DNA from: Actinomycetes bacterium
GTDB lineage: Bacteria > Actinomycetota > Coriobacteriia > WRKU01 > WQUG01
Length of the DNA stretch: 64,000 bases
Assembly: GCA_031272275.1 (NCBI GenBank)
Contig: JAISUC010000021.1
Span: 7,490 to 71,489, forward strand
Direction: 5' to 3'
A model generated the notes under the pieces. That model ran no database searches and was not told where the DNA came from. It was given only the letters and a program-made list of their open reading frames with translations. Shown piece after piece: positions 37,891 to 61,581 of the stretch (its first letter is position 1; every line of letters begins with the position of its first letter). Both the position numbers and the translations under genes were made by a program.

Positions 37891-37952
37891 GGACCGGTGA
37901 CCTTGACCCGACCGAACGCACCCACGGATTCGCACCCGAAAGCCGCCCCTCG

Positions 37953-39401
37953 ATGAACGCACGCGCACGTACCCGACACGCCCGCCGCCGCGCCAGCATT
38001 TTCGCCTCGCGCATCGGCTTCGCGTTCGCGATTGTGGCGGCCGTGACCGCCGTTCTGGCGGGTGTCATCACCTGGTTTGTGTGGTCCTGGCAGTTCGAAA
38101 ACTACATCAAGGCGAACCTACAGGACACCGCAGACACCGTCGCCGAACACGCGAGCGAAGCATACCAAACCTACGGCGGCTGGAATTTCCTGACGCTGCC
38201 GGTCATCCCCCAAGTCGCAACCCGCGTCGACGTCGCCGTCCAGATTCTGGACCAGAACGGGCGGATCATCTATGACGATGCGACGATGCGCGCTAGCTCG
38301 GCGATGCTTTCCGGCATCGACCCGAGCCTCTTGTTGGATACCCCCATCAACCTGGACCCCGGCAAGGAATCGGTGATGTCCAGCCCCATCTACGTCGGCA
38401 ACTATCGCGTAGGCGAAGTCCGCGTCTGGGCATTCGGCTCGGGCGGATTGCTGTCGGTCCACGACCTGCAAATGCGCAACTCGTCGTTGCTGGCCTTGGG
38501 TGTCGCCGGTTTCATCGCCATTGTGACCGCCACGGCAGCAGGCGTCGCCTATGCGCGCCGCTGGGTGCGTCCCATCAACCGCATCACGCAGACCGCCCGT
38601 GCGCTGCGTGCCGGCGACGAAGACGCACGCACCGAACTGACCGGCGACGATGAAATCGCCCAGCTGGGCATGACCTTCGACAAAATGGCGGACAGCATTC
38701 AAAACGACCGCCGCCTGGAACGCCGCCTGACCAGCGACGTCGCCCACGAACTGCGCACGCCGCTCATGGGCATACAGGCCACCATCGAGGCCATCGAGGA
38801 CGGCATCTATCCGGCCGACGCCGCACACCTGCAGGTCGTCACGAACGAAACGCGGCGCCTCTCGCGTCTGACCGACGGCATCCTGATGCTTTCGCACCTG
38901 GAAAACGCCGACCCCGACACCTTCCGCAGCGATACCCTGGATGTCGCCGACATCGTGCACGCAACCGTCGACGCGCACGCCGCACTGTTCGAGGCGGCGG
39001 GGCTGCAGCTGGTCGTCAATCTGACGCCGCAGCTGTTCGTGGCGGGGGATCGCGACAAACTGCAACAGGCACTCGGAAACCTGTTGTCGAATGCGGCGCG
39101 CTATACGCCCGAGGGCGGGACGGTCACCGTACAAACCGAGCTCGACAAAACGGGGGAGTACGTTCGCACGTCGGTCGGCGATACCGGAATCGGCATCAGT
39201 GCAGGTGATATGGGTAAGCTCTTCAGTCGCTTTTGGCGGGCGGATGCGGCGCGCAGCCGCGTGACCGGCGGCATCGGAATCGGCCTGTCCATTGTCAAGG
39301 AAATCGTGGATCGGCACCGAGGAACCGTTGAAGTCGAAAGCGTCGAGGGGGAGGGGACGACCTTCACGATCGTATTGCCCCGAGTCCGGCGACCGTCCTA
39401 G
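37953..39401 (+). CDS. Sensor histidine kinase (TM-HAMP-HisKA-HATPase_c)
   Basis: H-box SDVAHELRTPL; N, G1 and G2 boxes (NLLSNAARYT, GDTGIGI, GGIGIGLSIV). Confidence 0.9.
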   Translation: MNARARTRHARRRASIFASRIGFAFAIVAAVTAVLAGVITWFVWSWQFENYIKANLQDTADTVAEHASEAYQTYGGWNFLTLPVIPQVATRVDVAVQILDQNGRIIYDDATMRASSAMLSGIDPSLLLDTPINLDPGKESVMSSPIYVGNYRVGEVRVWAFGSGGLLSVHDLQMRNSSLLALGVAGFIAIVTATAAGVAYARRWVRPINRITQTARALRAGDEDARTELTGDDEIAQLGMTFDKMADSIQNDRRLERRLTSDVAHELRTPLMGIQATIEAIEDGIYPADAAHLQVVTNETRRLSRLTDGILMLSHLENADPDTFRSDTLDVADIVHATVDAHAALFEAAGLQLVVNLTPQLFVAGDRDKLQQALGNLLSNAARYTPEGGTVTVQTELDKTGEYVRTSVGDTGIGISAGDMGKLFSRFWRADAARSRVTGGIGIGLSIVKEIVDRHRGTVEVESVEGEGTTFTIVLPRVRRPS

Positions 39402-39468: not shown

Positions 39469-39497
39469 TTGACAAGCTGCAGCAATTCGACTAATCT
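39469..39497 (+). promoter_or_regulatory. Sigma70-type promoter of the str operon: TTGACA-17-TAATCT
   Basis: Consensus -35, 17-nt spacer, -10 TAATCT, about 120 nt upstream of rpsL. Confidence 0.6.
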
Positions 39498-39617
39498 AAT
39501 ACGTCGCGACTCTTTTCGGGGTCTGTACGATGCTGCGTACGAGTTGCCTCCGAAATCAAGAAAAGTGCAGGAAAACACTGCTGTGAAACCTGCGAAACCT
39601 AGTGATAGGAGTTTGTT

Positions 39618-39989
39618 TTGCCGACTATTAACCAGTTGGTCCGCAAAGGCCGCAAGACGGTCGCAGAAAAGAAAAAGACGCCGGCGCTCAAGGGCAACCC
39701 CCAGCTGCGCGGTGTCTGCACACGCGTTTACACGACCACGCCGAAAAAGCCGAACTCGGCTTTGCGCAAGGTCTGCCGTGTGCGTCTCAGCAACCAGATG
39801 GAAGTCACCGCCTACATCCCCGGCATCGGCCATAACCTGCAGGAACACTCGATTGTTCTGATTCGTGGCGGTCGTGTCAAGGACCTGCCGGGTGTGCGCT
39901 ACAAGGTCATTCGCGGTTCGCTCGACGCGGCCAGCGTTTCCGACCGTGCACAGGCCCGCAGCCGTTATGGCGCAAAGAAGGAGAAGTAA
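39618..39989 (+). CDS. rpsL: 30S ribosomal protein S12
   Basis: TTG start after TAGGAG; [12 protein letters not shown]... Confidence 0.95.
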
Positions 39990-39990
39990 G

Positions 39991-40461
39991 ATGCCCCGTA
40001 GAGCAGCAGCGGAGCGTCGCGAAATCGCAGGCGACGCCCGATACAACAACCGCCTGGTCACCCAGCTCATCAACAAGATCCTGCTGAAGGGCAAGCGTTC
40101 GCTTGCCGAGAGCATCGTCTATGGTGCCTTCGACTTGATCGAAGAGCGCACCGGCGGCGATCCGTTGGCGGTATTCAAGAAAGCGATGGACAACGTGCGC
40201 CCGACCCTCGAGGTCAAGCCCAAGCGCGTCGGTGGTGCCACCTATCAGGTGCCGGTCGAGGTCAACGCCCGCCGTTCGACGACGCTTGCGATCCGTTGGA
40301 TCGTCGGGTATTCCCGTTCCCGTCGCGAAAAGACGATGACCGAGCGTCTCGCAGCCGAAATCATGGAAGCAGCCGAGGAAACCGGCTCTTCCGTCAAGAG
40401 GCGCGAAGACGTGTACAAGATGGCCGAAGCGAACCGTGCGTTCTCGCACTATCGCTGGTAG
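39991..40461 (+). CDS. rpsG: 30S ribosomal protein S7
   Basis: [12 protein letters not shown]...; 156 aa. Confidence 0.95.
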
Positions 40462-40481
40462 TAAGGATTGCGTTCTTAAGT

Positions 40482-42575
<2,094 letters not shown>

Positions 42576-42595
42576 GAAAACAGGAAGGACGCACA

Positions 42596-42901
42596 GTGGC
42601 ACAACGAATCAGGATCAGGCTCAAGGGTTACGATCACGAGATCGTCGACGCGAGCACCAAAAAGATTGTCGAGACCGCGCAAAAGACCGGTGCCAAGGTC
42701 GTAGGTCCGGTCCCGCTGCCGACCTCGCGCAATCTGTACTGTGTCATCCGCTCGCCGCACAAGTATAAGGACAGTCGCGAGCAGTTTGAGATCCGCACAC
42801 ACAAGCGTCTGATCGATATTATCGACGCGACGCCCAAGACGGCGGACTCGCTGGGTCGACTCGACCTTCCCGCGGGCGTCGAAATTGAAATCAAGGCCTA
42901 A
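42596..42901 (+). CDS. rpsJ: 30S ribosomal protein S10
   Basis: GTG start; [12 protein letters not shown]; follows fusA directly, with no tuf between. Confidence 0.95.
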
Positions 42902-42917
42902 GGAAAGGGAGCGAGTA

Positions 42918-43538
42918 ATGACTACCATCTTAGGGAAAAAGCTGGGCATGACCCAGACCTGGACCGAGGGCGGCGACTTGTTGCCGGTCACGGTTATCGA
43001 GGCAGGACCCTGCACCGTCATTCAGGTGAAAAGCACTGCCAAAGAAGGATACGACGCCATCCAAATCGGGTTTGGCGAGATTCGTGAAACCCTGGTGAAC
43101 AAGCCGGCTGCCGGTCACTTCGCCAAGGCAAAGGTCAAGCCCCTGCGCCACTTGGCGGAGATTCGCTTGGACGGACCCGGAGACTTCAAGGTCGGCGACA
43201 CCATCGCCGTCGACGCTTTGGCGGATGCCAAGGTCGTCAATATCTCGGGCGTCAGCAAGGGTAAGGGTTTTGCCGGTTCCATGAAGCGCCATAACTTCGG
43301 TGGTGGACCGGGTGGACACGGCTCGCACTTTCACCGTATCCCCGGTTCCGTCGGTCAGGCATCAACCCCCTCACGCGTGTTCAAGGGAAAGAAACTCCCG
43401 GGACACATGGGAACCGATAAAGTGACCGTCCGTAACCTCGACATCGTCGATATCAAGCCGGAAGAAAACCTGCTGCTGGTCAAGGGCGCCGTGCCGGGAG
43501 GCAAAGGGGCGCTCCTCACCATCACGGTGGCGAAGTAA
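42918..43538 (+). CDS. rplC: 50S ribosomal protein L3
   Basis: MTTILGKKLGMTQTW. Confidence 0.95.
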   Translation: MTTILGKKLGMTQTWTEGGDLLPVTVIEAGPCTVIQVKSTAKEGYDAIQIGFGEIRETLVNKPAAGHFAKAKVKPLRHLAEIRLDGPGDFKVGDTIAVDALADAKVVNISGVSKGKGFAGSMKRHNFGGGPGGHGSHFHRIPGSVGQASTPSRVFKGKKLPGHMGTDKVTVRNLDIVDIKPEENLLLVKGAVPGGKGALLTITVAK

Positions 43539-43561
43539 GCGGTAACAAGGAGAACATGCTC

Positions 43562-44188
43562 ATGACAACCATCAAAGTCAAAGACGTACACGGGGCAGAC
43601 GCCGGCAGTCTCAAAGCGGCTGACGACGTCTTCAAGATCGAGCCGAACAGCTTCGCGGTGCACCAGGTTGTGCGCAGCCAGCTCGCCGGTGCCCGTGCTG
43701 GTACGCATCAGACCAAGACCCGCGGCGAGGTCCGCGGCGGCGGTAAAAAGCCTTGGCGCCAAAAGGGCACCGGTCGTGCCCGTCAGGGTACGATCCGCGC
43801 ACCCCAGTGGAAAGGCGGCGGCGTTGTCTTTGGACCGCATCCGCGTGACTATGCCTTCAAGGTCCCCAACAAGGTCGTAAAGCTCGCCATGCGCAGCGCT
43901 CTGTCCGCCAAGCTGGCGGAAAAGGCCCTGCATGTCGTCGATGCTCTCGATTTCGAGGCACCTTCGACCAAGCAGGCGCTGGCTGCTCTCGATGCCTTGG
44001 GGCTGAAAGACACCAAAATCACCGTAGTGTTGGGCAACGAGGACACCAACGCGTTTCTCTCGCTGCGTAACATCCCGCGCGTTCGACCGATTTTCGCTTT
44101 CGAGGCGAATACCTATGATTTGGTCGATAACGCGGCTCTGTTGTTCACCAAGGAATCCCTGAGCTGGCTTGAGGGGGTGCTCAACTGA
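43562..44188 (+). CDS. rplD: 50S ribosomal protein L4
   Basis: Second ATG chosen for SD spacing (AAGGAGA); 43556 is the alternative start. Confidence 0.9.
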
Positions 44189-44475
44189 TGTACGATCCGC
44201 GCCAAGTCATATTGAAACCCATCGTGTCCGAGAAATCCTACGACCTGATCGAGACGGCAAACCGCTACACCTTCGAGGTGCACAAAAATGCGACCAAGCC
44301 CCAGATCGCCCAGGCGATTGAAGAGATCTTCAACGTCAAGGTGACCAAGGTCAACACGATGAATGTCGTCGGCAAGCCGCGCCGCGTGCGCGTCGCCAAA
44401 GGCAAGACCCGTTCTTGGAAAAAGGCAATCGTCACCCTGGCTGCAGGGGACACGATCGAGTTGTTCGCGAACTAG
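44188..44475 (+). CDS. rplW: 50S ribosomal protein L23
   Basis: 95 aa; TGA/ATG overlap with rplD. Confidence 0.95.
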
Positions 44476-44485
44476 GAGAGGACTT

Positions 44486-45316
44486 ATGGCTGTCAAGAAA
44501 TACAAGCCGACTTCACCCGGTCGTCGCGGGATGTCGGTCTCCGATTTCGCGGAGATCACTGAAACGACGCCGGAAAAGTCGCTGCTCGAGCCGCTGCACA
44601 AAAAGGGCGGACGAAACAACAACGGTCGTATCACGGTGCGTCACCAGGGTGGCGGACACAAGCGCCGCTATCGCGTGATTGATTTCAAGCGCGATAAGGA
44701 TGCCATCCCCGCCAAGGTTGCGACCATCGAGTACGATCCCAACCGCAGTGCCCGTATCGCGCTGCTGCATTACGCAGACGGCGAGAAGCGCTACATCTTG
44801 GCGCCGAAGGGTCTCGAAGTCGGGACCACTGTGGAATCCGGACCGGAAGCCGACATCAAGCCGGGTAACGCCCTGCCGCTCGCATCCATTCCGGTCGGTA
44901 CCGTGGTGCACGCCGTCGAGATGCAACCGGGCAAGGGTGCGGCGTTGGCACGCAGTGCCGGCACCTCCATTCAGCTGATGGGCAAAGAGGGCAAGTACGC
45001 CATCCTGCGTATGCCTTCGTCCGAAATGCGTCGCGTGCTTGCGACCTGTCGGGCAACCGTCGGCGAGGTCGGTAATGCCGATCACTCGAACATCAACATC
45101 GGTAAAGCCGGTCGCAAGCGCCACATGGGAGTTCGCCCGACGGTGCGCGGTACGGTCATGAACCCGGTTGATCACCCGCACGGAGGCGGCGAGGGACGTA
45201 ACAAGTCCGCCGGTCGCCACCCGGTCACCCCTTGGGGTGTGCCGACCAAGGGTCATCGCACTCGTCAGAAGAACAAGGCCAGCAACCGTCTGATCATCAG
45301 GCGCCGCAAGAAGTAG
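44486..45316 (+). CDS. rplB: 50S ribosomal protein L2
   Basis: [15 protein letters not shown]. Confidence 0.95.
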
Positions 45317-45333
45317 AAAGGACAAGCGAACCG

Positions 45334-45606
45334 ATGAGCAGAAGTCTCAAAAAAGGACCTTTCGTCGAGGCGCGGCTGCTTTCCCGCATCAGCGCGATGA
45401 ACGAGTCCGGCGACAAGCAGGTTGTCAAAACCTGGTCGCGCGCATCGACGATTTTCCCGGAAATGGTCGGCCACACCATCGCGATTCACGATGGACGCAA
45501 GCACGTGCCGATTTACATCACCGAGTCCATGGTCGGGCACAAGTTGGGCGAGTTTTCCCCGACGCGTACCTTCCGCGGGCACGCCGGCGACAAGAAGGGA
45601 CGGTAA
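45334..45606 (+). CDS. rpsS: 30S ribosomal protein S19
   Basis: [11 protein letters not shown]. Confidence 0.95.
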
Positions 45607-45609
45607 GCC

Positions 45610-45954
45610 ATGTTCTCTAAAGCAGTCGCCAAACATCAGCGCATCGCACCGCGCAAGGCACGCTTGGTCGTCGATCTGATTCGCGGCAAGTCGGTTGATG
45701 AAGCACGCGCAATCGTCAAGTTCTCGACGCGTGCCGCCGCCGAAACGGTCGAAAAGGTGTTGAACAGTGCCGTCGCCAATGCCGAGCACAAAGAGGACCA
45801 CGTCAAGGCCGAGACGCTGTATGTCTCCGAAGCCTATGTGGACGAAGGTCCGACGCTCAAGCGTATTCGTGCCGGAGCAAAGGGAATGGCCAAGCGCATC
45901 AACAAGCGCAGCTGTCACATCACCATCGTCCTCGACCAGATCAAGGAGGCCTGA
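45610..45954 (+). CDS. rplV: 50S ribosomal protein L22
   Basis: 114 aa. Confidence 0.95.
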
Positions 45955-45956
45955 GC

Positions 45957-46685
45957 ATGGGCCAAAAAGTATCACCCATAGGTTTTCGTCTGGGTATTAT
46001 CGAGCGCCATCGCAGCCGTTGGTTTGCGGGTAAAGATTATGCCAAGAACCTTGAAAATGACATCAAACTCCGCCGTTTCCTCGAAAAGAAACTCGAGCGC
46101 GCCGCCGTTTCCGGCATCGTGATCGAGCGTAAAGGCGAGGATCGCGTCGAGGTTGAGATAGCAACCGCCCGCCCCGGTATCGTCATCGGCAAGAAAGGCG
46201 CCGATATCGACGAGCTGCGCCGCGAGCTGGAGCAAATCGCAGGTGTCGGAGTCGACGTCAAAATCGTCGAGATCATCCGCCCCGAGCTGGATGCAAAACT
46301 GACGGCACAGTCCGTCGCCGACCAGCTGGTCGGACGCGTCGCCTTCCGTCGTGCTATGCGCAAGGCGGTCACCAGTGCGATGAAGAGCGGTGCTCTGGGC
46401 ATCCGTATTCAGTGCTCCGGTCGTCTGGGCGGTGCGGAAATGTCGCGTCGCGAATGGTATCGCGAGGGTCGCGTGCCTCTGCATACGCTGCGCGCAAAGA
46501 TTGACTATGGTTTCGCCGAGGCGAACACCACCATGGGCATGATCGGTATCAAGGTCTGGATCTATCACGGCGAAACCTTGCCGGGACAGACTCCGCCGAA
46601 CCCCGCGACCGAGGGTACGCGTGCACCGCGCACCGGTCGTCGCGGTGACCGTGATCGCGATCATAGAGGACCAAGGAGAGGATAG
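45957..46685 (+). CDS. rpsC: 30S ribosomal protein S3
   Basis: [13 protein letters not shown]; RG/RD-rich tail. Confidence 0.95.
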
Positions 46686-46687
46686 GA

Positions 46688-47218
46688 ATGCTCAGTCCCA
46701 AACGAGTCCGTCACCGCAAAGTTCAGCGCGGTTCGATGAAGGGTCAGGCCAAAGGCGGGACCCGGGTTGTATTCGGCGACTATGGCTTGCAGGCATTGCA
46801 GCCGGCGTGGATTACCAACCGTCAGATCGAGGCCGCCCGTGTTGCGATGACCCGTCATATGAAGCGTGGCGGCAAGGTCTGGATCAACATTTTCCCGGAC
46901 AAGCCGATCACCAAGAAACCTGCCGAGACCCGCATGGGTTCGGGTAAGGGTAACCCGGAAGATTGGGTTGCCGTAGTCAAGCCCGGTCGCGTGATGTTCG
47001 AGATCGCCGGCGTGACCGAAGAGGTCGCCCGCGAAGCGCTGCGCCTGGCCGCCCACAAGCTGCCCATCAAGGTCAAGTTCGTGATGAGCGAAGAGGCCGC
47101 ACAGCCCGGTTTCACGCCGATTCAATTCAAGTCCGCGCGCTTGGAAGAGCCGGTCGCCGTGGCAGGCGAAGGCGAAGGCGCCGAGGCTGCACCTGCCGAA
47201 AGCAACGGGGAGGAGTAA
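46688..47218 (+). CDS. rplP: 50S ribosomal protein L16 (with acidic C-terminal extension)
   Basis: L16 core plus about 35-aa Glu/Ala-rich tail. Confidence 0.95.
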
Positions 47219-47220
47219 GC

Positions 47221-47439
47221 ATGAAACCCGCCGAGATTGCAAAAATGAGCGATGAGCAACTTGCCGCCGCTCTGAAGGATACACGCGCCGAGTTGTTCAA
47301 CCTGCGTTTCCGTCATGCGACCGGACAGCTGGATGACACCTCAAAGATTCCGTCCATCAAAAAGGACATCGCGCGCGTTCAAACCGAGATCCGCTCCCGT
47401 GAGCTGGCGGCAACCGCCGCCGTCGCGGATGCGAACTGA
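47221..47439 (+). CDS. rpmC: 50S ribosomal protein L29
   Basis: MKPAEIAKMSDEQL..LFNLRF. Confidence 0.9.
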   Translation: MKPAEIAKMSDEQLAAALKDTRAELFNLRFRHATGQLDDTSKIPSIKKDIARVQTEIRSRELAATAAVADAN

Positions 47440-47461
47440 AAGGCTAAGGTGAGCAGACGCG

Positions 47462-47722
47462 ATGACTGACACTCGTAACAGCCGCAAGACCCGTCAGGGC
47501 GTCGTCGTTTCGGCGTCGTCTGACAAAACCTGTGTGGTCAAAATCGAGGAGCGCAAAAAGCACCCCTTGTACAACAAGATGATCACCAGCAGCAAGAAAC
47601 TGCACGCCCACGATGAAGAAAACAGCGCAGGCGTCGGGGATACCGTCGTTGTGATGGAGACCCGTCCGCTGTCCAAGCTGAAGCGTTGGCGTCTGACCGA
47701 GATCGTCGAGAAAGCCAAGTAG
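47462..47722 (+). CDS. rpsQ: 30S ribosomal protein S17
   Basis: 86 aa. Confidence 0.95.
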
Positions 47723-47738
47723 GAGGAGCGAGAGAGCT

Positions 47739-48107
47739 ATGATTCAAGCTGAAACCAGGCTCAAGGTCGCCGACAACAGCGGCGCGCGCAAGCTCGCCTG
47801 CATCAAGGTGTTGGGCGGCAGTAAGCGCCGGTACGCACACGTCGGAGACGTTATCGTCTGTTCGGTGAAAGAGGCATTGCCGGCAGGTAACGTCAAAAAG
47901 GGCGAGGTTGTTAAAGCCGTTGTCGTCCGCACGGTGAAAGAGATTCGTCGCAGTGACGGAAGCTACATCTCATTCGACGAGAATGCAGCCGTCGTCATCG
48001 ATGAACAAGGCAACCCGCGCGGAACCCGTATCTTCGGGCCGGTCGCCCGCGAGCTGCGTGACCGCAAGTACATGAAAATCGTCTCGTTGGCTCCGGAGGT
48101 ACTGTAA
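47739..48107 (+). CDS. rplN: 50S ribosomal protein L14
   Basis: [16 protein letters not shown]. Confidence 0.95.
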
Positions 48108-48427
48108 TGGCGAAACTGAAGATTCATAAAGATGACAAAGTCGTCGTGATTGCCGGTAAGGACAAGGGCAAGGAGGGGCGTGTTCTGCGCGCTCTTCCGA
48201 CGCGCGAACGCGTGATTGTCGAGCGCGTCGCCGTCGCGAAAAAGACCCAGCGTCCCACCCAGAAAAACCCGCAAGGCGGCTTTGCCCAAATCGAGCAGCC
48301 CATCCACGTGAGCAACGTCAAGCTGATTTGCCCGAAGTGCGGTCAGCCCACCCGCGTGTCCTCGCGTCGCGATGATGACGGCAAGAAAATCCGCGTATGC
48401 AAGAAATGTGGGAAGGATATCGACTAA
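48107..48427 (+). CDS. rplX: 50S ribosomal protein L24 (C-terminus carries a C4 zinc-ribbon-like motif CPKCG...CKKCG)
   Basis: KOW motif [13 protein letters not shown]; the C-terminal Cys residues replace the usual DPKTG.../AKKSG. Confidence 0.9.
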
Positions 48428-49011
48428 TGGCAACAAAGACAAAGACGAAAACGCCGGCTGTCGCAGCCGACTCACCGCGCCTCAAAAAGCAATACCTTGA
48501 AGAGGTTGCGCCCGCGCTGAAAGAACAGCTGGGATTGGCAAACGTCATGCAGATTCCGCGTCTGGAGAAAATCGTGGTCAACATGGGTGTCGGTGCCGCT
48601 GTTGCGGACGCCAAGCAGCTGGATCACGCCGTTGAGGATTTGCGCGTGATCACCGGGCAGCAGCCCCGCATCAACCGCGCCAAGAAATCGATCGCAAGCT
48701 TCAAGCTGCGCACCGGTATGCCCATCGGCTGCAAGGTGACGCTGCGTGGAGACCGCATGTGGGAGTTCTTCGACCGTCTGCTGGCAACTGCGATTCCGCG
48801 TATCCGCGACTTCCGTGGACTGCCCAAGACCTCGTTTGATGGTCGCGGCAATTATTCGATGGGAATCACCGAGCAGTTGATTTTCCCCGAGGTTGAATAT
48901 GACAAGGTTGACAAGACGCGCGGCATGGACATTACCTTTGTTACGTCTGCGCCCGATGACGAAGGTGCTCAGGCACTGTTGGCCGCCTTTGGCTTTCCCT
49001 TTAAGGCATAA
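48427..49011 (+). CDS. rplE: 50S ribosomal protein L5
   Basis: TAATG overlap with rplX; 194 aa. Confidence 0.95.
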
Positions 49012-49049
49012 GGCCCGGATAATCAGGGCTTACAGAAAGGATATGTGAA

Positions 49050-49235
49050 GTGGCTAAGAAATCGATGATCGCCCGTTCGCGCCGAGCAGCGAAGTTCTCG
49101 ACGCGTGAGCACAACCGCTGCAACCGTTGTGGCAGGCCGCGCGCCTATTACCGCCAGTTCGGCCTGTGCCGCGTGTGTTTGCGCGAGTTGGCAAACAAAG
49201 GCGAGCTCCCCGGCGTCCGCAAGGCCAGCTGGTAA
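49050..49235 (+). CDS. rpsN: 30S ribosomal protein S14, type Z (zinc-binding)
   Basis: 61 aa; CNRCGRP...CRVC. Confidence 0.95.
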
Positions 49236-49342
49236 GCGACGACGAGGAGTCGGCCGGCAGTAGCGCATGTGCCACGGGTACCTGCGAACCTGCAAGCCGA
49301 GCATCCGGAACCATACGATAAGCGCATCGGAAAGGAACGACC

Positions 49343-49741
49343 ATGAGTATGACTGACCCCATCGCGGATATGCTGACACGCATACGTAACGCGAACTCGG
49401 CGTTCAAAGAGACGACCGACATCCCGACGAGCAAGAAGCTCGTGGATATCGCGCGCGTACTCAAAGACGCCGGCTACATCAGCGACTACACCGTCACGCC
49501 CGCCAAACCGGTCGGGACGTTGACCGTCACGCTGAAGTACGGAAAAGACAAGGACCGCGCGATTCGTGGTTTGCGCCGCATCAGCAAGCCCGGTTTGCGC
49601 GTGTACGCGAAAAAGGAAGATCTGCCCCGTGTCTTTGGAGGACTGGGGATTGCCATAGTGTCAACTTCGTCGGGAGTCATGACCGACGTCGAGGCGCGCA
49701 AAGCGGGCGTCGGCGGCGAAGTCTTGGCTTACGTCTGGTAA
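49343..49741 (+). CDS. rpsH: 30S ribosomal protein S8
   Basis: [17 protein letters not shown]. Confidence 0.95.
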
Positions 49742-49767
49742 GAATCGGAACAGGAGGAGGCAGTCAG

Positions 49768-50304
49768 ATGTCACGTATCGGTAAGATGCCCATTCCGGTT
49801 CCCGCCGGAGTCGAGGTGAAAATCGACGGTAGCACCGTTACCGTCAAGGGAAAGCTGGGAGAGTTGACCCAGACCTTCCAGCCGCAGGTATCCATTCGCC
49901 AGGAAGACGATCAGGTTATCGTCGAGCGCGTCGATGACAGCCGCGAGGCTCGCAGCTTTCACGGTTTGACGCGCACGCTGCTGAATAACATGGTCGTCGG
50001 CGTCAGCGAGGGCTACAGCCGCAATCTCGAGATTGTCGGTGTCGGTTACCGCGCAACACTGAAGGGCGCAGACATCGAGCTTGCGTTGGGTTATTCGCAT
50101 CCCGTGTTGGTCAAGCCCGAGCCGGGCATCACTTTTGAAGTCCCCGCTCCGACCAAGATCACGGTCAAGGGTATCGATAAGCAGCGCGTCGGACAGGTTG
50201 CAGCCGACATCCGTAAATGGCGCAAGCCCGAGCCGTACAAGGGCAAGGGTATTCGCTATGAAGGAGAGTACGTCCGCCGCAAGCTGGGTAAGGCCGCCGG
50301 ATAA
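49768..50304 (+). CDS. rplF: 50S ribosomal protein L6
   Basis: 178 aa. Confidence 0.95.
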
Positions 50305-50400
50305 ACCGTATCGTAGGGTGCCGAATGTCCTCGGGACACAGGCGCCGTCGGTCAGTGGTCACCACTGCCCCTACGACAGGGATAAGGAGAAGAAACAGGT

Positions 50401-50772
50401 ATGGAAAAGTCGAAAGCAAAGAACGCAGGTCTGGCGCGCCGCCAGCGCCGCGTCCGCGCAAAGGTCTCCGGCACCGCCTCGCGTCCGCGCCTGCGCGTGA
50501 CCCGTACGAATGCACATATTTCAGCTCAGCTGATTGACGATGTCAACGCCGTTACCTTGGCTTCCGCCGCTTCAAACGAGGCGGAACTGGCCAAAGCCAT
50601 CAAGGGCGTTGCCTCGAACGCGGATGCCGCCAAGCAGGTCGGAGAGCTTCTGGCCCGCCGTGCGACGGACGCCGGCATCAGCGAAGTTGTCTTTGATCGT
50701 GGTGGGCGCATTTATCACGGTCGTGTGAAGGCTCTGGCAGAAGGCGCGCGCAGCGCCGGTCTGAAGTTTTAG
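50401..50772 (+). CDS. rplR: 50S ribosomal protein L18
   Basis: 123 aa; preceded by a 96-nt structured spacer. Confidence 0.95.
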
Positions 50773-50784
50773 GAAGGACTGGAA

Positions 50785-51387
50785 ATGGCTCGTAACGTAG
50801 CGCCGATATCAGAACTGCAGGAAAAGGTTGTTTCCATCAACCGCGTTTCAAAGGTCGTCAAGGGTGGACGTCGTTTTGCCCTGAGCGCCTTGGTGGTTGT
50901 CGGTGACGGCGAAGGCCGCGTGGGTGTCGGGATGGGTAAATCCACCGAAGTTCCCAACGCGATCAAAAAGGGCATCGAAGATGCCAAAAAGAACATGTTC
51001 GACGTGCCGATTGTGAACGGTACGTTGCCGCACGAGGTCATCGGAGAGTTCGGTGCCGGTCGCGTGCTGTTAAAGCCGGCTGCACCCGGTACCGGTATCA
51101 TCGCCGGTGGTCCGGTGCGCGCCGTGGTCGAGCTCGCGGGAATCACCGACGTGCTGAGCAAATCCTTGGGCAGCGACAATGCGATTAACATCGTGCGCGC
51201 CACCGCTCAGGGGCTGCAGTCGCTGCAGTCCGCCCGGGACGTCGCCGCACGTCGCGGCAAGACGGTCGCCGAGCTCTACGGTCGCGAAAAAGTGGTCGAG
51301 CCGGTTGCGGACGTGCCCGCCGAGGTCGCTGCACCCCAGACTCCCGAGGCCGTTCAGGCCGTCGCAGTCGAAGGGAGTGAGGCATAA
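50785..51387 (+). CDS. rpsE: 30S ribosomal protein S5 (with C-terminal extension)
   Basis: [24 protein letters not shown]. Confidence 0.95.
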
Positions 51388-51578
51388 TGGCCGCAAAAAC
51401 CAAGAAGCTCAAGATTACACAGGTTCGCTCGACGGTCGGATGCAAGCACGATCAGGTCGGCACAATCCGTGCCTTGGGACTGAAGCGCATCAACCATTCG
51501 GTCGAACAGGACGATACGCCCGTTATTCGTGGTATGGTGTTCAAGGTGAAGCACCTGATAGAAGTAGAGGAGCTGTAG
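51387..51578 (+). CDS. rpmD: 50S ribosomal protein L30
   Basis: 63 aa. Confidence 0.95.
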
Positions 51579-51579
51579 C

Positions 51580-52023
51580 ATGCAACTGAACGACTTGATG
51601 CCCGCACCGGGTTCACGCAAGACGCGCAAGCGCGTCGGGCGCGGTCATGGCTCGGGCCACGGTGGTACCTCCACCCGTGGTGCAAACGGTCAGCTGTCCC
51701 GCGCAGGCGGTGGCAAGGGCGCCGGTTTCGAGGGTGGTCAGCTGCCGCTCGCGATGCGCCTGCCCAAGCTGGGCGGTTTCATAAACCATAACCGTGTCGA
51801 GTACGCCGTGGTTAACGTCGCCCGCTTGGACGAGTTGTTTGCCGACGGCGACATCGTCACTCCCGAGGCACTGGAAGAAAAGGGAGCCATCAAGAGCGCC
51901 CTGAAGGCTCCGGTGAAAGTCTTGGGTAATGGCGACATCTCGAAAAAGCTCACCGTCAAGGTCGAGAAAGTGTCCGCGTCCGCCAAAGAGAAAATTGAGA
52001 AAGCCGGAGGAAAGGTCGAATAA
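51580..52023 (+). CDS. rplO: 50S ribosomal protein L15
   Basis: 147 aa; Gly-rich N-terminal region. Confidence 0.95.
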
Positions 52024-52025
52024 CC

Positions 52026-53351
52026 ATGTTCTCTGCGATTATCAATGCGTTCAAAATAGAGGATCTGCGTAAAAAGATCCTGTTCACGTTGTTCATCGTG
52101 TTGTTGTACCGCGTTGGATGTCATATCCCGGCCCCCGGTGTCGATGTGAACTTGGTCGCAGAGACGGTCAAGAACAACGCGGCCTTGGGCTTTTTGAACT
52201 TGTTTACCGGAAGCGCGCTGCAGCAGCTTTCGGTCTTTGCACTGGGTGTAATGCCCTACATCACTTCCTCGATCATCATGCAGCTGTTGCAAGCTGCCAT
52301 CCCCACCATCGAGGAGTGGAGCAAAGACGAAGCCGGCCAGCGCAAAATCACACAGATCACCCGCTACATCACCATCGGTATCGGCTTGGTCGAGTCAATC
52401 GGTCTGCTCTACACGTTCCGCAGCGCCATCCGCAGCGTCGCAAGCATCCCCGGCTGGTTGACGCCGGTGATGATTGTGGGATCCCTGCTTGCAGGTACGG
52501 CTCTGATCATGTGGATCAGCGAGCTGATTACCCAGCGAGGCGTCGGAAACGGTATGTCGATGATCATCTTCAGCTCGATCGTCGCGCGTTTTCCCGCCGC
52601 CCTGATCGAAAGCCTCAAGGACACCGTGACCGGTGCCTGGAAGGTCTGGTGGCAGCTGCTGATCACCGCAGCCGTCATCATCATTGTGCTGTTGGTCGTG
52701 ATTTTTGTGGTCATCTATATTGAGGAAGGACAGCGTCGCATCCCCGTCCAGTACGCCAAGCGTGTGGTCGGTCGTCGCGTCTTTGGCGGGTCGGGTACGT
52801 ATATCCCCCTGAAGGTGAACGGCGCAAACGTCGTGCCGATGATTTTTGCCTCTGCCATTCTGACGATTCCGCTGCAGCTGTCGCAGATTTTCCCGCAGGC
52901 GAATTGGCTGTCAAAGATCGCGAACTTTGTGTCCCCCCAGTCGTCCAGCGCGACGGCGGCTTTGCTGCCTTGGTATTCCGGTTGGGGAAACTGGCTGATA
53001 ACGTTTATCCTGATTGTGTTTTTTGCGTATTTCTATACGGCGCTGGTTTTCAACCCCATTGACATCAGCGACAACCTGCGCAAACAGGGCGGCTTTATCC
53101 CGGGTATCCGTCCCGGTAACAACACGACCCGCTATATCGAGCAGGTCATGAACCGCATCACGCTGCCGGGGGCTTTGTTCCTGGGCTGTATCGCGGTGGG
53201 TACCTCGGTTGTGTTTGCTTTGACGAAAAGCCCGATGGTCAACCAGTTCGGTGGCACCAGCATCTTGATTATGGTGGGTGTCGCGCTGGAAACCATGCAG
53301 CAAATCGAGTCGCAGCTGACCATGCGGCACTACGAGGGCTTCTTTAAATAG
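52026..53351 (+). CDS. secY: Preprotein translocase subunit SecY
   Basis: 441 aa; 10 TM helices. Confidence 0.95.
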   Translation: MFSAIINAFKIEDLRKKILFTLFIVLLYRVGCHIPAPGVDVNLVAETVKNNAALGFLNLFTGSALQQLSVFALGVMPYITSSIIMQLLQAAIPTIEEWSKDEAGQRKITQITRYITIGIGLVESIGLLYTFRSAIRSVASIPGWLTPVMIVGSLLAGTALIMWISELITQRGVGNGMSMIIFSSIVARFPAALIESLKDTVTGAWKVWWQLLITAAVIIIVLLVVIFVVIYIEEGQRRIPVQYAKRVVGRRVFGGSGTYIPLKVNGANVVPMIFASAILTIPLQLSQIFPQANWLSKIANFVSPQSSSATAALLPWYSGWGNWLITFILIVFFAYFYTALVFNPIDISDNLRKQGGFIPGIRPGNNTTRYIEQVMNRITLPGALFLGCIAVGTSVVFALTKSPMVNQFGGTSILIMVGVALETMQQIESQLTMRHYEGFFK

Positions 53352-53414
53352 GGTCTTTGAATAGGAAAGCCGTGGGTCGGTTTTCGGCTTACTGCGTTTC
53401 ACGCTTGTTTCATG

Positions 53415-53450
53415 TCAGGGCATTCGGTACCACCGGATGCCCTGTTTTCT
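53415..53450 (+). terminator. Intrinsic terminator after secY (CAGGGCATTCGG-taccac-CGGATGCCCTG plus TTTTCTT)
   Basis: 11-bp stem with one bulge followed by a T-run; it ends the ribosomal cluster, and adk/map/infA do not follow. Confidence 0.6.
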
Positions 53451-53456
53451 TATAAT
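53451..53456 (+). promoter_or_regulatory. -10 TATAAT placed 6 nt before the eutBC ATG (leaderless)
   Basis: Same geometry as the ispD and cysS promoters; no SD. Confidence 0.45.
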
Positions 53457-53462
53457 AGCCGC

Positions 53463-55568
53463 ATGTACACAACCACCCTGCATGATCGCAGTTTCACCTT
53501 CGCGACGCTGAAAGCGCTCCTTGCCTGTGCCAGCGAGGAAAAAACCGGTGATGTGATGGCGGGTATCGCCGCCACCACCGAGCTGGAACGAATCGCCGCG
53601 CGCCGTATTCTGGCGGACTTACCCCTCAGCACGCTCTATGAAAACCCCGTCATTGCCTATGACACCGACGAAGTCACCCGCGTGATGATTGATGCGATTG
53701 ATGCGACCGCCTACGGCCGCATCAAAGACCTGACCGTGGGGGCATTCCGCGAACTGATTCTGGCGTCATCCCCGTCCTACCTGGCAAGCATCCGTGACGG
53801 CATCACGGCAGAGATGGCAAGTGCCACCGCGAAACTGATGAGCAACCTGGACCTGGTCTACGCCGCAGCCAAGCTCCCCGTAACGGCGACCTGCAACACG
53901 ACCATCGGGCTGCCCGGCACTTTCAGCGTGCGCTGCCAGCCGAACCACCCGACCGATGACGTCGCAGGAATCCTGGCTTCCACTGCCGAGGGACTCAGCT
54001 ACGGATGCGGGGATGCGGTTATCGGCGTGAACCCCGCCACCGACGACCCCGACAGCGTACGTGAAATCCTAACGGCGCTCCGCCGCCTGGTCGACGAATA
54101 CGCCATCCCGACCCAGAACTGCGTACTCGCGCACGTCAGCACCCAGATGGCAGCCCTTGCCTCTGGAGCCCCGGTTGACCTGATGTTCCAGTCGATTGCC
54201 GGCAGCCAACGTGCCAACGCAGCCTTTGGCATCGATGTGGCACTACTGGACGAAGCCGACCACATGATGCGACAGCTGAAAAACAGCACCGGCCCCAACT
54301 ATTTCTACTTTGAAACCGGCCAGGGCAGCGCGCTTTCTGCCGACGGGCACCACGGCGCCGACCAGCAAACGCTCGAGGCCCGCGCCTACAGCTTGGCAAA
54401 ACGCTACCGCCCCTTCCTGGTGAACACGGTGGTGGGCTTCATCGGCCCGGAATATCTGTATGACGGCCGCCAAATCATCCGCGCCGGCCTGGAAGACCAC
54501 TTCATGGGCAAACTGCTGGGCGTCCCCGCAGGCGTGGACGTCTGCTACACCAACCACGCCCGCGCCGACCAAAACGACGTAGACGTGCTGGTCGCGCTGC
54601 TTGCCCAGGCGGGTTGCAACTACATCATGGGCATCCCCACAACCGATGACGTGATGCTGGCATACCAAAGCTCCAGTTTCCACGACACGGCGACCATGCG
54701 CGAGCTCTTGGGTAAACATGCCATCCGGCCCTTCGAGCACCGCATGGAACAGCTCGGCGTTCTGTCGGACGGCCGGCTGACCACGCGCGCCGGCAACCCG
54801 CGCCTATTCGGCTACGACCCGCCGACCACGCACACAGCGAACACAGCGCAAGCCACACAATCGGCGGGGGAGCACGTCCCGACGCCCGCCCGTTTGGATG
54901 TCGGTCACGCCGGCCCGCGCCTGCGCACAGCGACACTTTTGGACCTGCGAGCCGACCACGCAATTGCACGCGATGCCGTTTGGGACGATACCGACTGCAG
55001 CGTGGCGGATGACCTGGGCTTTGTCACCGTGCAGACGCTGGTGAACGATAAAGAGGAATACCTGCGCCGCCCCGATTTGGCGCGTGGTTTCAGTGACGAA
55101 TCGCTGGCCTACCTGCGCCGCCACGCAGCCCCGGGTGCAGACCTGCAGATTATCGCAGCTGACGGATTGTCGGTCGCGGCCGTTCAGGAAAACCTGGCGC
55201 GGATCTATCCGGAACTGATCCGACTGGCGGGTGCTCGCGGCTACAGCACGGGCACACCCATCTATGTGCGTTATGGGCGTGTGGCGACGATGGACAAGAT
55301 TTCAGAAGCCCTGCAGGCAAAGGTCACCGTCCTGTTGGTGGGGGAACGCCCCGGCCTGGGTTGCCGCACCTCGATGAGTTGCTACATGGCTTGGGAGGCA
55401 AGCCCGGACAAGCCCGAGGCACAACGCAACGTAGTCTCGAACATCCACGACGGCGGTCTGCCACCCGAAGCTGCCGCCGAACGCATCATCTCGATTGCCG
55501 CCGATATGTTTCGGTACCGCACATCGGGCGTCGAACTGAACCGACTGCTCCATCGCGTCGCCCGCTGA
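53463..55568 (+). CDS. eutBC: Ethanolamine ammonia-lyase, large and small subunits fused (EutB-EutC)
   Basis: N-terminal about 455 aa is EutB-like and the C-terminal about 220 aa is EutC-like (LVGERPGLG..), joined by a Thr/Ala-rich linker; the ORF-track start at 53412 was rejected in favour of MYTTTLHDRSFTF. Confidence 0.8.
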   Translation: MYTTTLHDRSFTFATLKALLACASEEKTGDVMAGIAATTELERIAARRILADLPLSTLYENPVIAYDTDEVTRVMIDAIDATAYGRIKDLTVGAFRELILASSPSYLASIRDGITAEMASATAKLMSNLDLVYAAAKLPVTATCNTTIGLPGTFSVRCQPNHPTDDVAGILASTAEGLSYGCGDAVIGVNPATDDPDSVREILTALRRLVDEYAIPTQNCVLAHVSTQMAALASGAPVDLMFQSIAGSQRANAAFGIDVALLDEADHMMRQLKNSTGPNYFYFETGQGSALSADGHHGADQQTLEARAYSLAKRYRPFLVNTVVGFIGPEYLYDGRQIIRAGLEDHFMGKLLGVPAGVDVCYTNHARADQNDVDVLVALLAQAGCNYIMGIPTTDDVMLAYQSSSFHDTATMRELLGKHAIRPFEHRMEQLGVLSDGRLTTRAGNPRLFGYDPPTTHTANTAQATQSAGEHVPTPARLDVGHAGPRLRTATLLDLRADHAIARDAVWDDTDCSVADDLGFVTVQTLVNDKEEYLRRPDLARGFSDESLAYLRRHAAPGADLQIIAADGLSVAAVQENLARIYPELIRLAGARGYSTGTPIYVRYGRVATMDKISEALQAKVTVLLVGERPGLGCRTSMSCYMAWEASPDKPEAQRNVVSNIHDGGLPPEAAAERIISIAADMFRYRTSGVELNRLLHRVAR

Positions 55569-55648
55569 CAGCCGTATCAACGTGCATTTTTGTATCGACT
55601 TTGTTTGAACGGGAACAATTCCCCGCCGTCTTGTGCTACCATCAGCGC

Positions 55649-58600
55649 ATGGCACTACGGGGGAAATGTCGTCTGCTCTTGCCGGTCTGCGTTGTTCTCA
55701 CACTCTGCGGAATAGCTATCCGTGCGTTTGCGACAGAACCCATCAGCGGCTATACGCCACCCGCCATTGATTCCACAGACATAAACGAAGCCGACTACGA
55801 GTCGTTGCTGGACATCCCGCGGCAGGCGGTGCGGGGTCTGCGCACGACGGTCAGCGCTGACCCCTTGCCCGCCAGTTTCGATTGGCGAACAGAAAACCCA
55901 CAGATTCTGGTGGCAGCCCGCGATCAGAACCCCTATGGCAGTTGCTGGGCATTTGCCGCCACGGCGGTCATGGAGGGCAGTGCCGTTCAAAACGGATTGA
56001 CGGCAACCTCGATTATGCTCTCTCCGAAACAATTGGTGTATGCCGCCTATAACAGTCAAACCTTCGAGACACCCGCCGGTTACAGTGCGCTGAATGCCGG
56101 CGGAAACAGCCTGTATTCGGCGGCGGCATTGGGCAAATGGTTCGGTCCGGTTGACGAGGCGCGCGTGCCCTACGGAACCTCGACCGCGATTACCGACCCT
56201 GCCATCTATGCTGCCAGCGACTATCACCTGCGCGAGATGCGCATGTTGCCGATGCCGAAAAACAACACGACGGCACAGGCAGCCTATTCCGCCGAAAATG
56301 TGGAAACGATTAAGCGGGCGGTCAAAACGTGGGGACCTGTCGCGACCGCGTTTTACTGGGGGAATTATTGGAAGTCATCGACGAACAGTCCCTACAATTC
56401 GACGGTTTATTACTACTGCAACAACTCCCATTACAATCCCGCCGATCCTTATGGCAACCCACTCGGTGTCAATATCCCGAACCATGCGGTGGTGATCGTG
56501 GGCTGGGACGACAGCATTTCCCGGACGAATTTCAATACAAACATCGATAGCCAACCCCCGGGTGACGGGGCGTGGTTGATTCGCAACAGCTGGGGTCCGA
56601 CCTTTGGACAGGCAGGCTATTTCTGGATGTCGTATTACGACAAATCCATGGACACCAGCGAATACTTCAGCATCGAGGATGTTTCGAACTACGACCACAA
56701 CTATTACTGGGACGCGATGGGCTGGATCGGCGGCGAAATCGAAAACGATGGCGACGCCGCAGACGCCGCGCAAATCGCAAACGTGTTCACATCAACGGCA
56801 ACGACCACGGTGGCACAGGAACTGCGTGCCGTCAGCTTTTACACCGACGAACCGGACACCGACTACGAGATCGCCGTCTACCTGAACCCGACCGATGGCA
56901 GTCCGACAGGTCCTTTGCAGGCAGATGTCGCAGACGGCGCCGCGCTGACGATCACCGGAAACAAAGTCTACGCGGGGCTTTATACCGTCGACCTGGACAT
57001 TCCGGTGTATTTGCCCGCAGGGCAGACCTTCTCGGTGGTTGTCACCTTGTCACGCACGGATGGCGTGGACGCAATCCCGGTCGAGGCCAGCGACAGCGGC
57101 ACGACCCTGCAGGGCGATCCGGCTTCCGGGCTGCTGTCAACCGGCGTCGACGGGTTGGATATCGCCCCGGGTCAAAGCTACTATCGCTTCACCGCAGCCC
57201 CGGGCGACAGCAGCCCCGTCACCGACCCCGTCTGGACCGACGTCTATGACACGGTCTCGGCGCCCAATTCAGACTACGCCGACTGTGGCAACGTGAACGT
57301 GAAAGCCCTGACGGTCGACACCTCCGCAACCGCAGCCGCGCGTTATACGATCGGCTTTGATTCCTGCGGTGGCACATCCGTGCCGGCGACCACCATCGCC
57401 TCCGGTGCCCCGTACGGCACGCTTCCCACCCCCACGCGCGCCGGCTGCGACTTCCTGGGCTGGTTCACCGAATCGGTCGAGGGCACGCAGGTCACCGCAG
57501 CCACCACCGCGACCGAAAATCGCATCCTCTACGCACACTGGGGCTACGTCATCACCTTTGATGCACGCGGTCACAGCGCCGACACAACCGTTACCTTGTC
57601 CGGCGGACACGCGCTGACCACCCTGCCGGCAGACATCACGCGCGCCGGCTACACTTTCGCCGGCTGGTGGACTGAACCCGACGGCGGTTTTCCCATCGCC
57701 GCCGGCATCTTTCCCGCAGGTAGCACGGCCTATTACGCCCGCTGGACCTGCACGATTACCTATGACGCGCGCGGCGGCAGCAGCACCCCCGCCACCCAGA
57801 CGGTCTTTGACGGCGCAACCGTCACGCTACCCACAGCGACGCGCGCCGGTTACACCTTCGGCGGCTGGTGGACCGCCGCCACCGCAGGATCGCAGGTCGG
57901 TTCGGACTGGCACGCCGGTGGAGACATCACGCTCCACGCCCATTGGAACAGCACCGTCAGTTTTGATGTCAACGGGGGGGATACCGCCACGACGCCACCG
58001 CCCATCGTGGTCGCCCAGGACAGCGCCTATGGCCCGCTGCCGACGGCGATGCGCGCCGGCTATACCTTCGACGGTTGGTATACGGCACCCGGCGGGGGAG
58101 TACGGGTCGGCAGCGACGATTATCCCGCCGGCGGGGATGCGACCCTGTACGCCCGGTGGGTCAGCGTTGTCGTGTGGGATGCGCGCGGTTTCAGCACTGA
58201 CACCACCCGGGCGGTTGCGTTCGGGTCTGCGGTCGGTACCTTGCCGGCTGACGTGACGCGCGCCGGCTACACATTTGCCGGCTGGTGGACGGCTGCGGAC
58301 GGTGGTACGCAGGTCACGGCCGCCGCGGTGCCTCCCGGAAATGTGACCTATTATGCGCGCTGGACCTGTACGGTGAGCTTTGACACGCACGGCGGCACGG
58401 CGGCACCGGCGCTGACCGTGTTTCAGGGACAGTCGGTCACGTTGCCTGCGGTTTCGCGCGTCAGCTACAGTTTCGCCGGCTGGTGGACGGACGCGACCGG
58501 CGGCACGCAGCTGACCGGTTCGTATACGCCTGCCGGCGACATCACGCTGCACGCGCACTGGTGCAGCCGTATCGTCCTGAACGCGAACGGCGGAATCACA

Positions 58601-59989: not shown

Positions 59990-59998
59990 TTTCGGTCG

Positions 59999-60658: not shown

Positions 60659-60718
60659 TAAATACTCCTTAAATTCTTCAGTTAATCTGTCGAGACTCCA
60701 TTGTACCCGCCCCGTCCC

Positions 60719-61569: not shown

Positions 61570-61581
61570 CTTTTCCACCTC

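Follow-up and report, generated by a model that had tools for sequence, protein, structure and literature searches.

We identified a single gene, eutBC (53463-55568), that encodes both subunits of ethanolamine ammonia-lyase in one chain of 701 amino acids (aa), standing directly behind the secY gene of a ribosomal super-operon. The sequence analyzed, hereafter the window, is 64 kb of contig JAISUC010000021.1 from a Coriobacteriia-type actinobacterial metagenome-assembled genome (MAG), and about 0.85 kb beyond it was also covered; unless noted otherwise, features lie on the forward strand. A first-pass annotation of the window, made from its letters alone, had described an atypical super-operon without tuf after fusA and cut short after secY, followed by an orphan EutB-EutC fusion. 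Our comparison with relatives and homologs makes it likely that the operon layout was inherited by this genome, and that a cytoplasmic, single-chain ethanolamine ammonia-lyase, probably expressed from a leaderless mRNA, was gained horizontally.

A single-chain ethanolamine ammonia-lyase

The eutBC gene is a genuine single-chain fusion, as the first-pass annotation had proposed: both Pfam domains fall in the open reading frame (ORF) at 53463-55568 and pass curated cut-offs. The frame (53412/53463-55568) was given the 701-aa start at 53463, which agrees with the N-termini of homologs and with an independent gene call. The large-subunit (EutB) half, at 53463-54809 (residues 1-449), matched positions 1-434 of the 435-position Pfam profile PF06751 (658.5 bits, 6e-198) and scored 635.2 bits against NCBIfam NF011649 (cut-off 554). 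Residues 3-449 aligned with residues 4-452 of the 453 in Escherichia coli EutB, meaning that this half is complete, and the two were 53% identical in a structural alignment. Residues R160, Q162, N193, E287, and D362 of E. coli EutB, reported by Shibata et al. 2010 as those that bind substrate and carry out catalysis, were identical in the window protein at 5/5 positions in a HMMER alignment to 3abo_A, and the window equivalents R157, Q159, N190, E284, and D359 were invariant across 60 fused and unfused homologs.

The small-subunit (EutC) half, at 54882-55568 (residues 474-701), matched Pfam PF05985 (243 bits, 3.5e-72) and the NCBIfam equivalog NF003971 (248.6 bits, cut-off 230). Residues 473-694 aligned structurally with residues 73-295 of the 295 in E. 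coli EutC at 41% identity, such that the first ~72 EutC residues are absent and a linker of ~24 residues (54810-54881, residues 450-473, GYDPPTTHTANTAQATQSAGEHVP) takes their place. This linker is of low complexity, rich in T, A, and Q, and disordered. It is ~14 residues longer than in the closest fused homologs, and the extra part holds a 15-mer, discussed below, and a 9-nucleotide (nt) tandem duplication (ACACAGCGA/ACACAGCGC, 54832-54849). Judging by the duplication in the sequence, we suggest that the linker was lengthened by replication slippage.

An AlphaFold2 model built on a 60-sequence alignment had a mean predicted local distance difference test score (pLDDT) of 87.8 and a predicted template modeling score of 0.88, with pLDDT below 50 only at residues 391-404 and in the linker at residues 455-473. 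The predicted folds are a TIM-barrel large subunit and a Rossmann-like small subunit, and in Foldseek comparisons the EutB half matched 3abo_A with a template modeling score (TM) of 0.96 and a root-mean-square deviation (rmsd) of 1.8 Å, while the EutC half matched both 3abo_B and 7xrm_B with a TM of 0.83 and an rmsd of 1.4 Å. The enzyme would be composed of a complete EutB TIM-barrel catalytic half, the disordered linker, and a cobalamin-covering EutC core, and the fused lyase is probably functional.

Fusions and gene junctions in metagenome-assembled contigs such as this one can arise as artefacts, either as an assembly chimera at the secY-eutBC junction (~53400), which the first-pass annotation had raised as a concern, or as a sequencing error that erases the eutB stop; the contig of a close relative also breaks right after secY. 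We consider an artefact highly improbable here. A separately assembled Logan contig (L018) from run SRR14710912 was 100% identical to window positions 42026-58507 (16.5 kb), covering the junction and the entire fusion gene, and because this independent contig runs without a difference across the junction, a chimera is unlikely and the junction stands. The same B-linker-C architecture is present in at least 13 homologs from other samples, and the EutC N-terminal extension is truly deleted in the window protein, not merely joined to EutB by read-through of a stop.

Ribosomal gene order inherited from the lineage

The nearest relatives of the window are termite-gut Coriobacteriia MAGs. By SecY identity to the window, locus L001 (82%) is labeled an Actinomycetes MAG and loci L002-L005 (67-73%) are labeled Coriobacteriia MAGs, and we compared secY neighborhoods across a range of divergence that spanned 61-100% SecY identity, window included. 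The cluster opens with rpsL (39618-39989, N-terminus MPTINQL) and rpsG (39991-40461), each placed by start codon, ribosome-binding site, and tblastn to relatives, and continues with fusA (40482-42575), which encodes a 697-aa protein with all EF-G Pfam domains and was likewise matched to relatives by tblastn. The fusA stop codon TAA is followed by exactly 20 nt (42576-42595, gaaaacaggaaggacgcaca) that hold a ribosome-binding site, and then by the GTG start of rpsJ at 42596, so the first-pass reading of fusA running directly into rpsJ across a 20-nt gap, with no tuf between them, was correct. The S10 and spc clusters, rpsJ through rplO and then secY (42596-53351; tblastn to L001-L005, Pfam on the identical L018), are unbroken up to secY (52026-53351; SecY Pfam 5e-103), and rpsL through secY follow the canonical order throughout.

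When E. coli EF-Tu, Adk, Map, IF1, S13, and RpoA were searched by tblastn, none of tuf, adk, map, infA, rpsM, and rpoA was found in the 64 kb; the only match in the window was to the G-domain of EF-G. The direct passage from fusA to rpsJ without tuf was present at all six junctions that were visible (6/6), namely the window, L001 (SecY 82%), L003 and L005 (70-71%), L026 (64%), and L027 (61%). As every visible junction has this form, the missing tuf after fusA is a class-level trait, the norm for the class rather than a peculiarity of this genome, and tuf would have been unlinked from fusA throughout the class and the trait inherited. Canonical str-S10-spc-alpha clusters of the E. coli and Bacillus subtilis type share the gene order from rpsL to secY with the window, but the window differs from them in lacking tuf after fusA, a class-wide difference, and in having adk-map-infA-rpmJ-rpsM-rpsK-rpsD-rpoA-rplQ detached from secY, a subclade-wide one.

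We propose that rpsL-rpsG-fusA-S10-spc-secY is transcribed as a single long operon, started by a promoter of its own and closed by a strong intrinsic terminator behind secY. A promoter-like site (TTGACA, 17 nt, TAATCT) can be read at 39469-39503 and is a putative start for this operon; our consensus promoter scan did not list it, owing to the -10 rule of the scan. Directly 5′ of rpsL lies a two-component system (37150-39401) consisting of an OmpR-type response regulator and a HAMP histidine kinase. Since this system rather than rpoB-rpoC occupies that position, the str operon is detached on its 5′ side too. Farther upstream, the Pfam-annotated larger ORFs are ordinary housekeeping genes, including a ClpB-like gene, ispDF, cysS, iorAB, and the glycine cleavage system.

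A breakpoint after secY that is refilled in each genome

The most distant loci, L026 and L027 (SecY 61-64%), retain the canonical order in which secY is followed by adk-map-infA-(rpmJ)-rpsM-rpsK-rpsD-rpoA-rplQ. At L025 (66%), secY is followed by 3 kb of opposite-strand genes, then by adk-map, and then by unrelated genes, an arrangement suggestive of a transitional state between the intact and the broken spc-alpha linkage; the insert itself (L025:5492-8197) encodes an Exo_endo_phos-family protein and a DinB-type polymerase. In the closest group, adk was absent after secY at all eight loci whose downstream side was visible (L002-L005, L024, L149, L150, and L151; SecY 67-76%). Because adk is lost after secY in all eight of these loci and kept at 61-64% identity, the break is a derived trait of the subclade, where it is also a hotspot of gene replacement, and is not peculiar to this genome. 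The adk-to-rpoA part would have split off from secY in the ancestor of the subclade, with the breakpoint then refilled differently by each genome.

Behind secY, the genomes of this closest group carry different cargo, among it homoserine O-succinyltransferase, BlaI/BlaR, a giant DUF11 protein, prephenate dehydratase together with birA and bioY, and a small ferredoxin ahead of unrelated genes. A gene for this ferredoxin (56-59 aa) begins 14-30 nt after secY in three relatives with SecY identities of 70-76% (L024:8200-8376, L149:3521-3691, L150:3455-3634, and L151:1778-1957) and is absent from the window; it may be an older neighbor at the breakpoint. The eutBC gene followed secY at none of the eight relatives' loci with a visible downstream side, while the contig of L001, the nearest relative, breaks off 59 nt past secY. 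Among the relatives examined, then, only eutBC is specific to this genome at the position after secY. The first-pass impression of an atypical super-operon did not hold up, as both of its features recur in relatives, one across the class and the other across the subclade; what survived the comparison of synteny was the fusion gene, missing from the post-secY locus of each relative that could be scored. These patterns suggest that apparent anomalies of ribosomal gene order should be judged against the lineage and not against E. coli, both being inherited here, and that the position after secY, a clade-specific breakpoint refilled per genome, is a useful marker and a natural landing site for incoming genes.

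Relatives of the fusion and the origin of eutBC

The fused architecture is rare and already known, and is not new in the window. A single-chain EutB-EutC was described in 2012 in Pelobacter carbinolicus, which has two such genes in a genome without eutA (PMC3543383). Compared by description only, the Pelobacter fusion resembles that of the window in having EutB followed by EutC in one polypeptide and no described association with a microcompartment, but its genes belong to a cluster of 43 that also holds transporter and cobalamin biosynthesis genes, whereas the window gene stands alone behind secY (PMC3543383). In a collection of 5.8 billion proteins we found 13 fused homologs of 680-752 aa, almost all of them singleton metagenome clusters, of which the 10 best matches were 53-63% identical to the window protein and three more distant ones 44-47%. 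The best of these (63%) is labeled an Oscillospiraceae MAG and comes from run SRR14710898, an accession neighboring that of the window's run, SRR14710912. A library of 1.84 billion representatives gave ~15 matches of at least 600 aa over both halves, with both Pfam domains present in 9/9 that were checked, and its named fused members include proteins of Sorangium sp. So ce128 and of an anaerobic amoeba, Pelomyxa schiedti. The amoebal protein (KAH3732714.1, P0252; 1144 aa) carries an N-terminal extension of ~470 residues with no Pfam match at E <= 1e-5.

We inspected the genomic contexts of four fused homologs (P0001, P0005, P0008, and P0061) and found shell genes in none of them. P0001 stands alone upstream of rimP-nusA-infB, and P0005 is likewise solitary, next to an ABC/HAD/GntR/MgtC cluster and close to rpsL-rpsG-fusA; given these two, the orphan habit is common in the fused family. 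Upstream of P0008 are eutA and a gene of the FmdA_AmdA (acetamidase/formamidase) family, and upstream of P0061 are an FmdA_AmdA-family gene and a copper amine oxidase, with the FmdA_AmdA-family gene preceding the fused EutBC at L022:7494-9891 and L023:6842-9996. Such neighbors hint at a broader module for scavenging nitrogen from amines and amides. In neighbor-joining trees of the EutB half, from which Pelobacter was left out and in which deep nodes were weak, bootstraps supported groups of the window with P0001 and P0002 (53%), of P0007, P0008, and P0010 (100%), and of P0003 and P0006 (99%), and all near fused proteins fell together in 0/100 replicates. Linker length and sequence also differ between the fused groups. 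Single-chain lyases are rare and widely scattered, with members in Coriobacteriia, an Oscillospiraceae MAG, Pelobacter, Sorangium, and Pelomyxa, and they often move about as lone genes.

Horizontal transfer as a one-gene cassette, probably from another gut bacterium, is the most likely source of eutBC. We favor acquisition because the gene is missing from every relative's scored locus, because the best homolog comes from a run of neighboring accession and a MAG labeled as a different phylum, and because the EutB half is as near to EutB of Negativicutes and Clostridium (61-63%) as to most fused proteins. The guanine-plus-cytosine (GC) content of eutBC (0.63, compared with 0.60 for the window) is host-like, so the acquisition would not be recent. 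The same composition would also suit the alternative that this genome kept a gene ancestral to the subclade at the post-secY position, which the sampled relatives have since lost or exchanged for others; the locus is clearly a replacement hotspot, and L001, whose contig ends after secY, cannot be scored. We find such an ancestral gene unlikely, given that eutBC was present at 0/8 of the relatives' loci, that three relatives (L024, L149, and L150/151) share the ferredoxin gene after secY, suggesting a different ancestral neighbor, and that the best homologs are not labeled Coriobacteriia and the EutB half lies near those of Negativicutes and Clostridium.

Predicted function without a microcompartment

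Based on its conserved catalytic residues and fold, the window enzyme would most likely carry out the adenosylcobalamin-dependent radical deamination of ethanolamine to acetaldehyde and ammonia, as E. coli EutB6EutC6 does, and would differ from it mechanistically in that the covalent link fixes the subunits at a 1:1 ratio. The E. coli complex (PDB 3ABO, 5YSN, 7XRM) has the same two folds and substrate-binding residues as the window protein, but consists of two separate chains, with ~72 extra N-terminal residues on EutC, whereas in the window EutC is joined to the C-terminus of EutB. Some contexts of fused homologs might point to a different vicinal amino alcohol or amine as the substrate, among them the acetamidase/formamidase-family genes and copper amine oxidase described above and a phosphonate-type ABC/HAD/GntR cluster beside one homolog, and the Pelobacter authors speculated on distinct substrate roles for their two copies (PMC3543383). 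Conservation of all five ethanolamine-contacting residues of E. coli EutB, together with an EutB half that scores above the NCBIfam EutB cut-off, makes a substrate other than ethanolamine improbable.

The first ~19 residues of Salmonella EutC are established as a microcompartment encapsulation peptide (reviewed in PMC5821096). This region of EutC has no counterpart in the window protein, whose EutC half begins at the equivalent of E. coli residue 73. Homologs of EutA, bacterial microcompartment (BMC) shell proteins, and EutN were not found in the window by tblastn, nor were EutA, EutH, and Eat found among its Pfam-annotated larger ORFs, in line with the earlier description of eutBC as an orphan without eutA, eutH, or microcompartment genes nearby. 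With the N-terminal extension of EutC gone and no shell genes in the vicinity, we suggest that the enzyme is free in the cytoplasm, where its probable role would be to scavenge nitrogen and carbon from membrane-lipid ethanolamine without a shell. By carrying this gene, the uncultured gut actinobacterium may be able to draw nitrogen from the ethanolamine of membrane lipids.

Lyases used without shell proteins are known from the eutBC-eat-aldehyde dehydrogenase locus of Pseudomonas aeruginosa (PMC5821096) and from eutBC of Acinetobacter baumannii (PMC9426561). These short eut loci resemble the window in their shell-free lyase, but their eutB and eutC are separate genes accompanied by genes for a transporter, a dehydrogenase, and a regulator, whereas eutBC in the window has no such neighbor. 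The long eut operon with a microcompartment has BMC shell genes (EutM/K/L/S and EutN) and eutA/eutH adjacent, whereas the neighbors in the window are secY and a surface peptidase. Single-chain lyases without the targeting end of EutC may be attractive to biochemists and engineers as a minimal B12 enzyme of fixed stoichiometry.

Terminator and expression of eutBC

Downstream of secY we found an intrinsic terminator (53416-53454) with a 13-bp stem at 53416-53444, a 3-nt loop, and the T-run TTTTCTT. The stem is the strongest terminator-like site in 39.3-56 kb, and its hairpin forms in both minimum-free-energy and centroid folds (z = -3.35), which bears out the earlier claim that the cluster ends after secY in a strong terminator. 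Only 18 nt, without a ribosome-binding site, separate the stem from the eutBC ATG (53463). Within them the sequence reads as a perfect TATAAT hexamer (53451-53456) that ends 7 nt before the A of the ATG and is a candidate promoter for a leaderless eutBC mRNA. Leaderless mRNAs are common in Actinobacteria. The eutBC gene would then probably have its own promoter, with TATAAT placed inside the T-tract of the terminator and giving a leaderless transcript, and this is the weakest step of our explanation.

It is also possible, though we think it the less probable course, that eutBC has no promoter of its own and owes its transcript to incomplete termination after secY, at a level that follows transcription of the ribosomal operon. 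The hairpin lies just 18 nt from the ATG, the T-run is short and interrupted, and the promoter scan found no sigma-70-type promoter, all of which would suit read-through; in such an mRNA, on the other hand, the ATG would lack a ribosome-binding site and sit beside a very stable hairpin, and the TATAAT is perfect and at an ideal distance for a leaderless start. A riboswitch or attenuator 5′ of eutBC was considered and rejected, as the whole window had no Rfam match at gathering thresholds; at E <= 1, the region 53100-53700 gave just one sub-threshold match, to a small RNA (23.9 bits against a threshold of 80).

Several points weigh against a leaderless, horizontally gained, cytoplasmic lyase. 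The proposed eutBC promoter has a poor -35 region, and ribosomal-operon transcripts that run past the terminator would account for eutBC mRNA just as simply. The composition of eutBC matches the host and is not foreign, the gene may also be present in the nearest relative (L001), whose contig stops 59 nt past secY, and both the direction of the transfer and its timing are inferred, with the donor-like MAG known by its label. The activity of the enzyme, its use of the cofactor, and the expression of eutBC are predicted from sequence and model, and eutA, a transporter, an aldehyde dehydrogenase, and a B12 supply may or may not lie outside the 64 kb. Finally, some fused homologs adjoin EutA, and since P0008 is both fused and beside EutA, independence from the reactivase is not a property of the architecture.

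A 15-mer shared by the linker and the rest of the window

The first-pass annotation had noted an over-represented motif in the fusion linker. This is most likely the 15-mer GGGGGAGYRCGTCCC, of which a copy lies in the linker at 54866-54880 (GGGGGAGCACGTCCC) and encodes AGEHVP. The window holds 12 exact copies, at 14518 (-), 16894 (+), 18152 (-), 19991 (+), 23339 (-), 24406 (+), 27830 (-), 30859 (+), 39417 (-), 54866 (+), 63531 (+), and 63593 (-), and one copy with two mismatches at 39152 (+). In shuffled sequences ~1 match was expected at two or fewer mismatches, and 13 matches were reached in 0/100 shuffles. An extra copy lies just past the window end (L148:54-68). The copies have sharp edges and flanks that are not conserved, and both strands carry them, between genes as well as within coding sequence in each of the three phases, often in poorly conserved segments such as the EutBC linker, the GcvPA tail, the stretch between CysS domains, and the stretch before a ROK domain.

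We found no copy in the ribosomal cluster of the window and none in L001-L005, which is a weak test, as these loci consist largely of ribosomal genes, a region equally free of copies in the window. A metagenome-wide scan for GGGGGAGTRCGTCCC returned at least 120 loci, essentially all single-copy and spread over many unrelated samples, as chance alone could produce. The 15-mer is specific to this organism among all sequences compared. Successive exact copies alternate in strand at 10/11 steps (binomial tail ~0.6% under random orientation), which is suggestive only and may be due to chance. The pair at 39417 (-) and 54866 (+) brackets the whole ribosomal operon and two thirds of eutBC, and two inverted copies 47 nt apart (63531-63607) lie at the right-hand edge of a low-GC island, where a hairpin of 14/15 bp is possible.

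We hypothesize, by analogy, that the behavior of the 15-mer resembles that of uptake-signal-type words. A specific form of this idea, in which GGGGGAGYRCGTCCC is a DNA-level signal spread by a drive process (like uptake in Neisseria and Haemophilus, or another process that generates sites) and settles in permissive spots of proteins, seems to us doubtful. To our knowledge, a genome-wide DNA word of this type has not been described in Coriobacteriia. If it were true, such a word would shape protein linkers, including the lengthened EutB-EutC linker, and the single-chain lyase cassette would have been resident long enough to acquire the word of its host.

Downstream neighbors and a DRT2 defense island

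Beyond eutBC lies a gene for a giant secreted surface protein (55649-59989, ~1446 aa), identified by Pfam, NCBIfam, and a signal-peptide-like N-terminus, with a papain C1 peptidase, a lectin-like domain, 11 Listeria-Bacteroides repeats, and fn3. We detected no terminator between the two genes; the surface peptidase is a neighbor without a functional link to eutBC.

The next segment (59950-63450, reverse strand) is a low-GC defense island with a GC content of 0.44-0.52 in the GC profile. It encodes, all on the reverse strand, a 219-aa protein (orf219, 59999-60658), a phosphoribosyltransferase (PRTase)-like protein with weak similarity to ShosT/PsyrT (60719-61468), and an antiviral DRT2 reverse transcriptase (61582-62904) that scored 400.9 bits against NCBIfam NF041746 (cut-off 390) and 8.2e-142 as Drt2 in PADLOC. 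A single inserted block of eutBC, peptidase, and reverse transcriptase, a possibility that the first-pass annotation had raised, was rejected: eutBC and the peptidase gene have a host-like GC content of 0.63 and only 59.95-63.45 kb is low in GC, and a nucleoside hydrolase gene, not adk, lies beyond the island. Because of this separate composition and of the gene beyond, the three do not form one insertion between secY and adk, and the reverse transcriptase belongs to a defense island of its own. Some 550 nt of non-coding DNA 5′ of the reverse transcriptase gene (62905-63450) is where the non-coding RNA of a DRT2 system would be expected.

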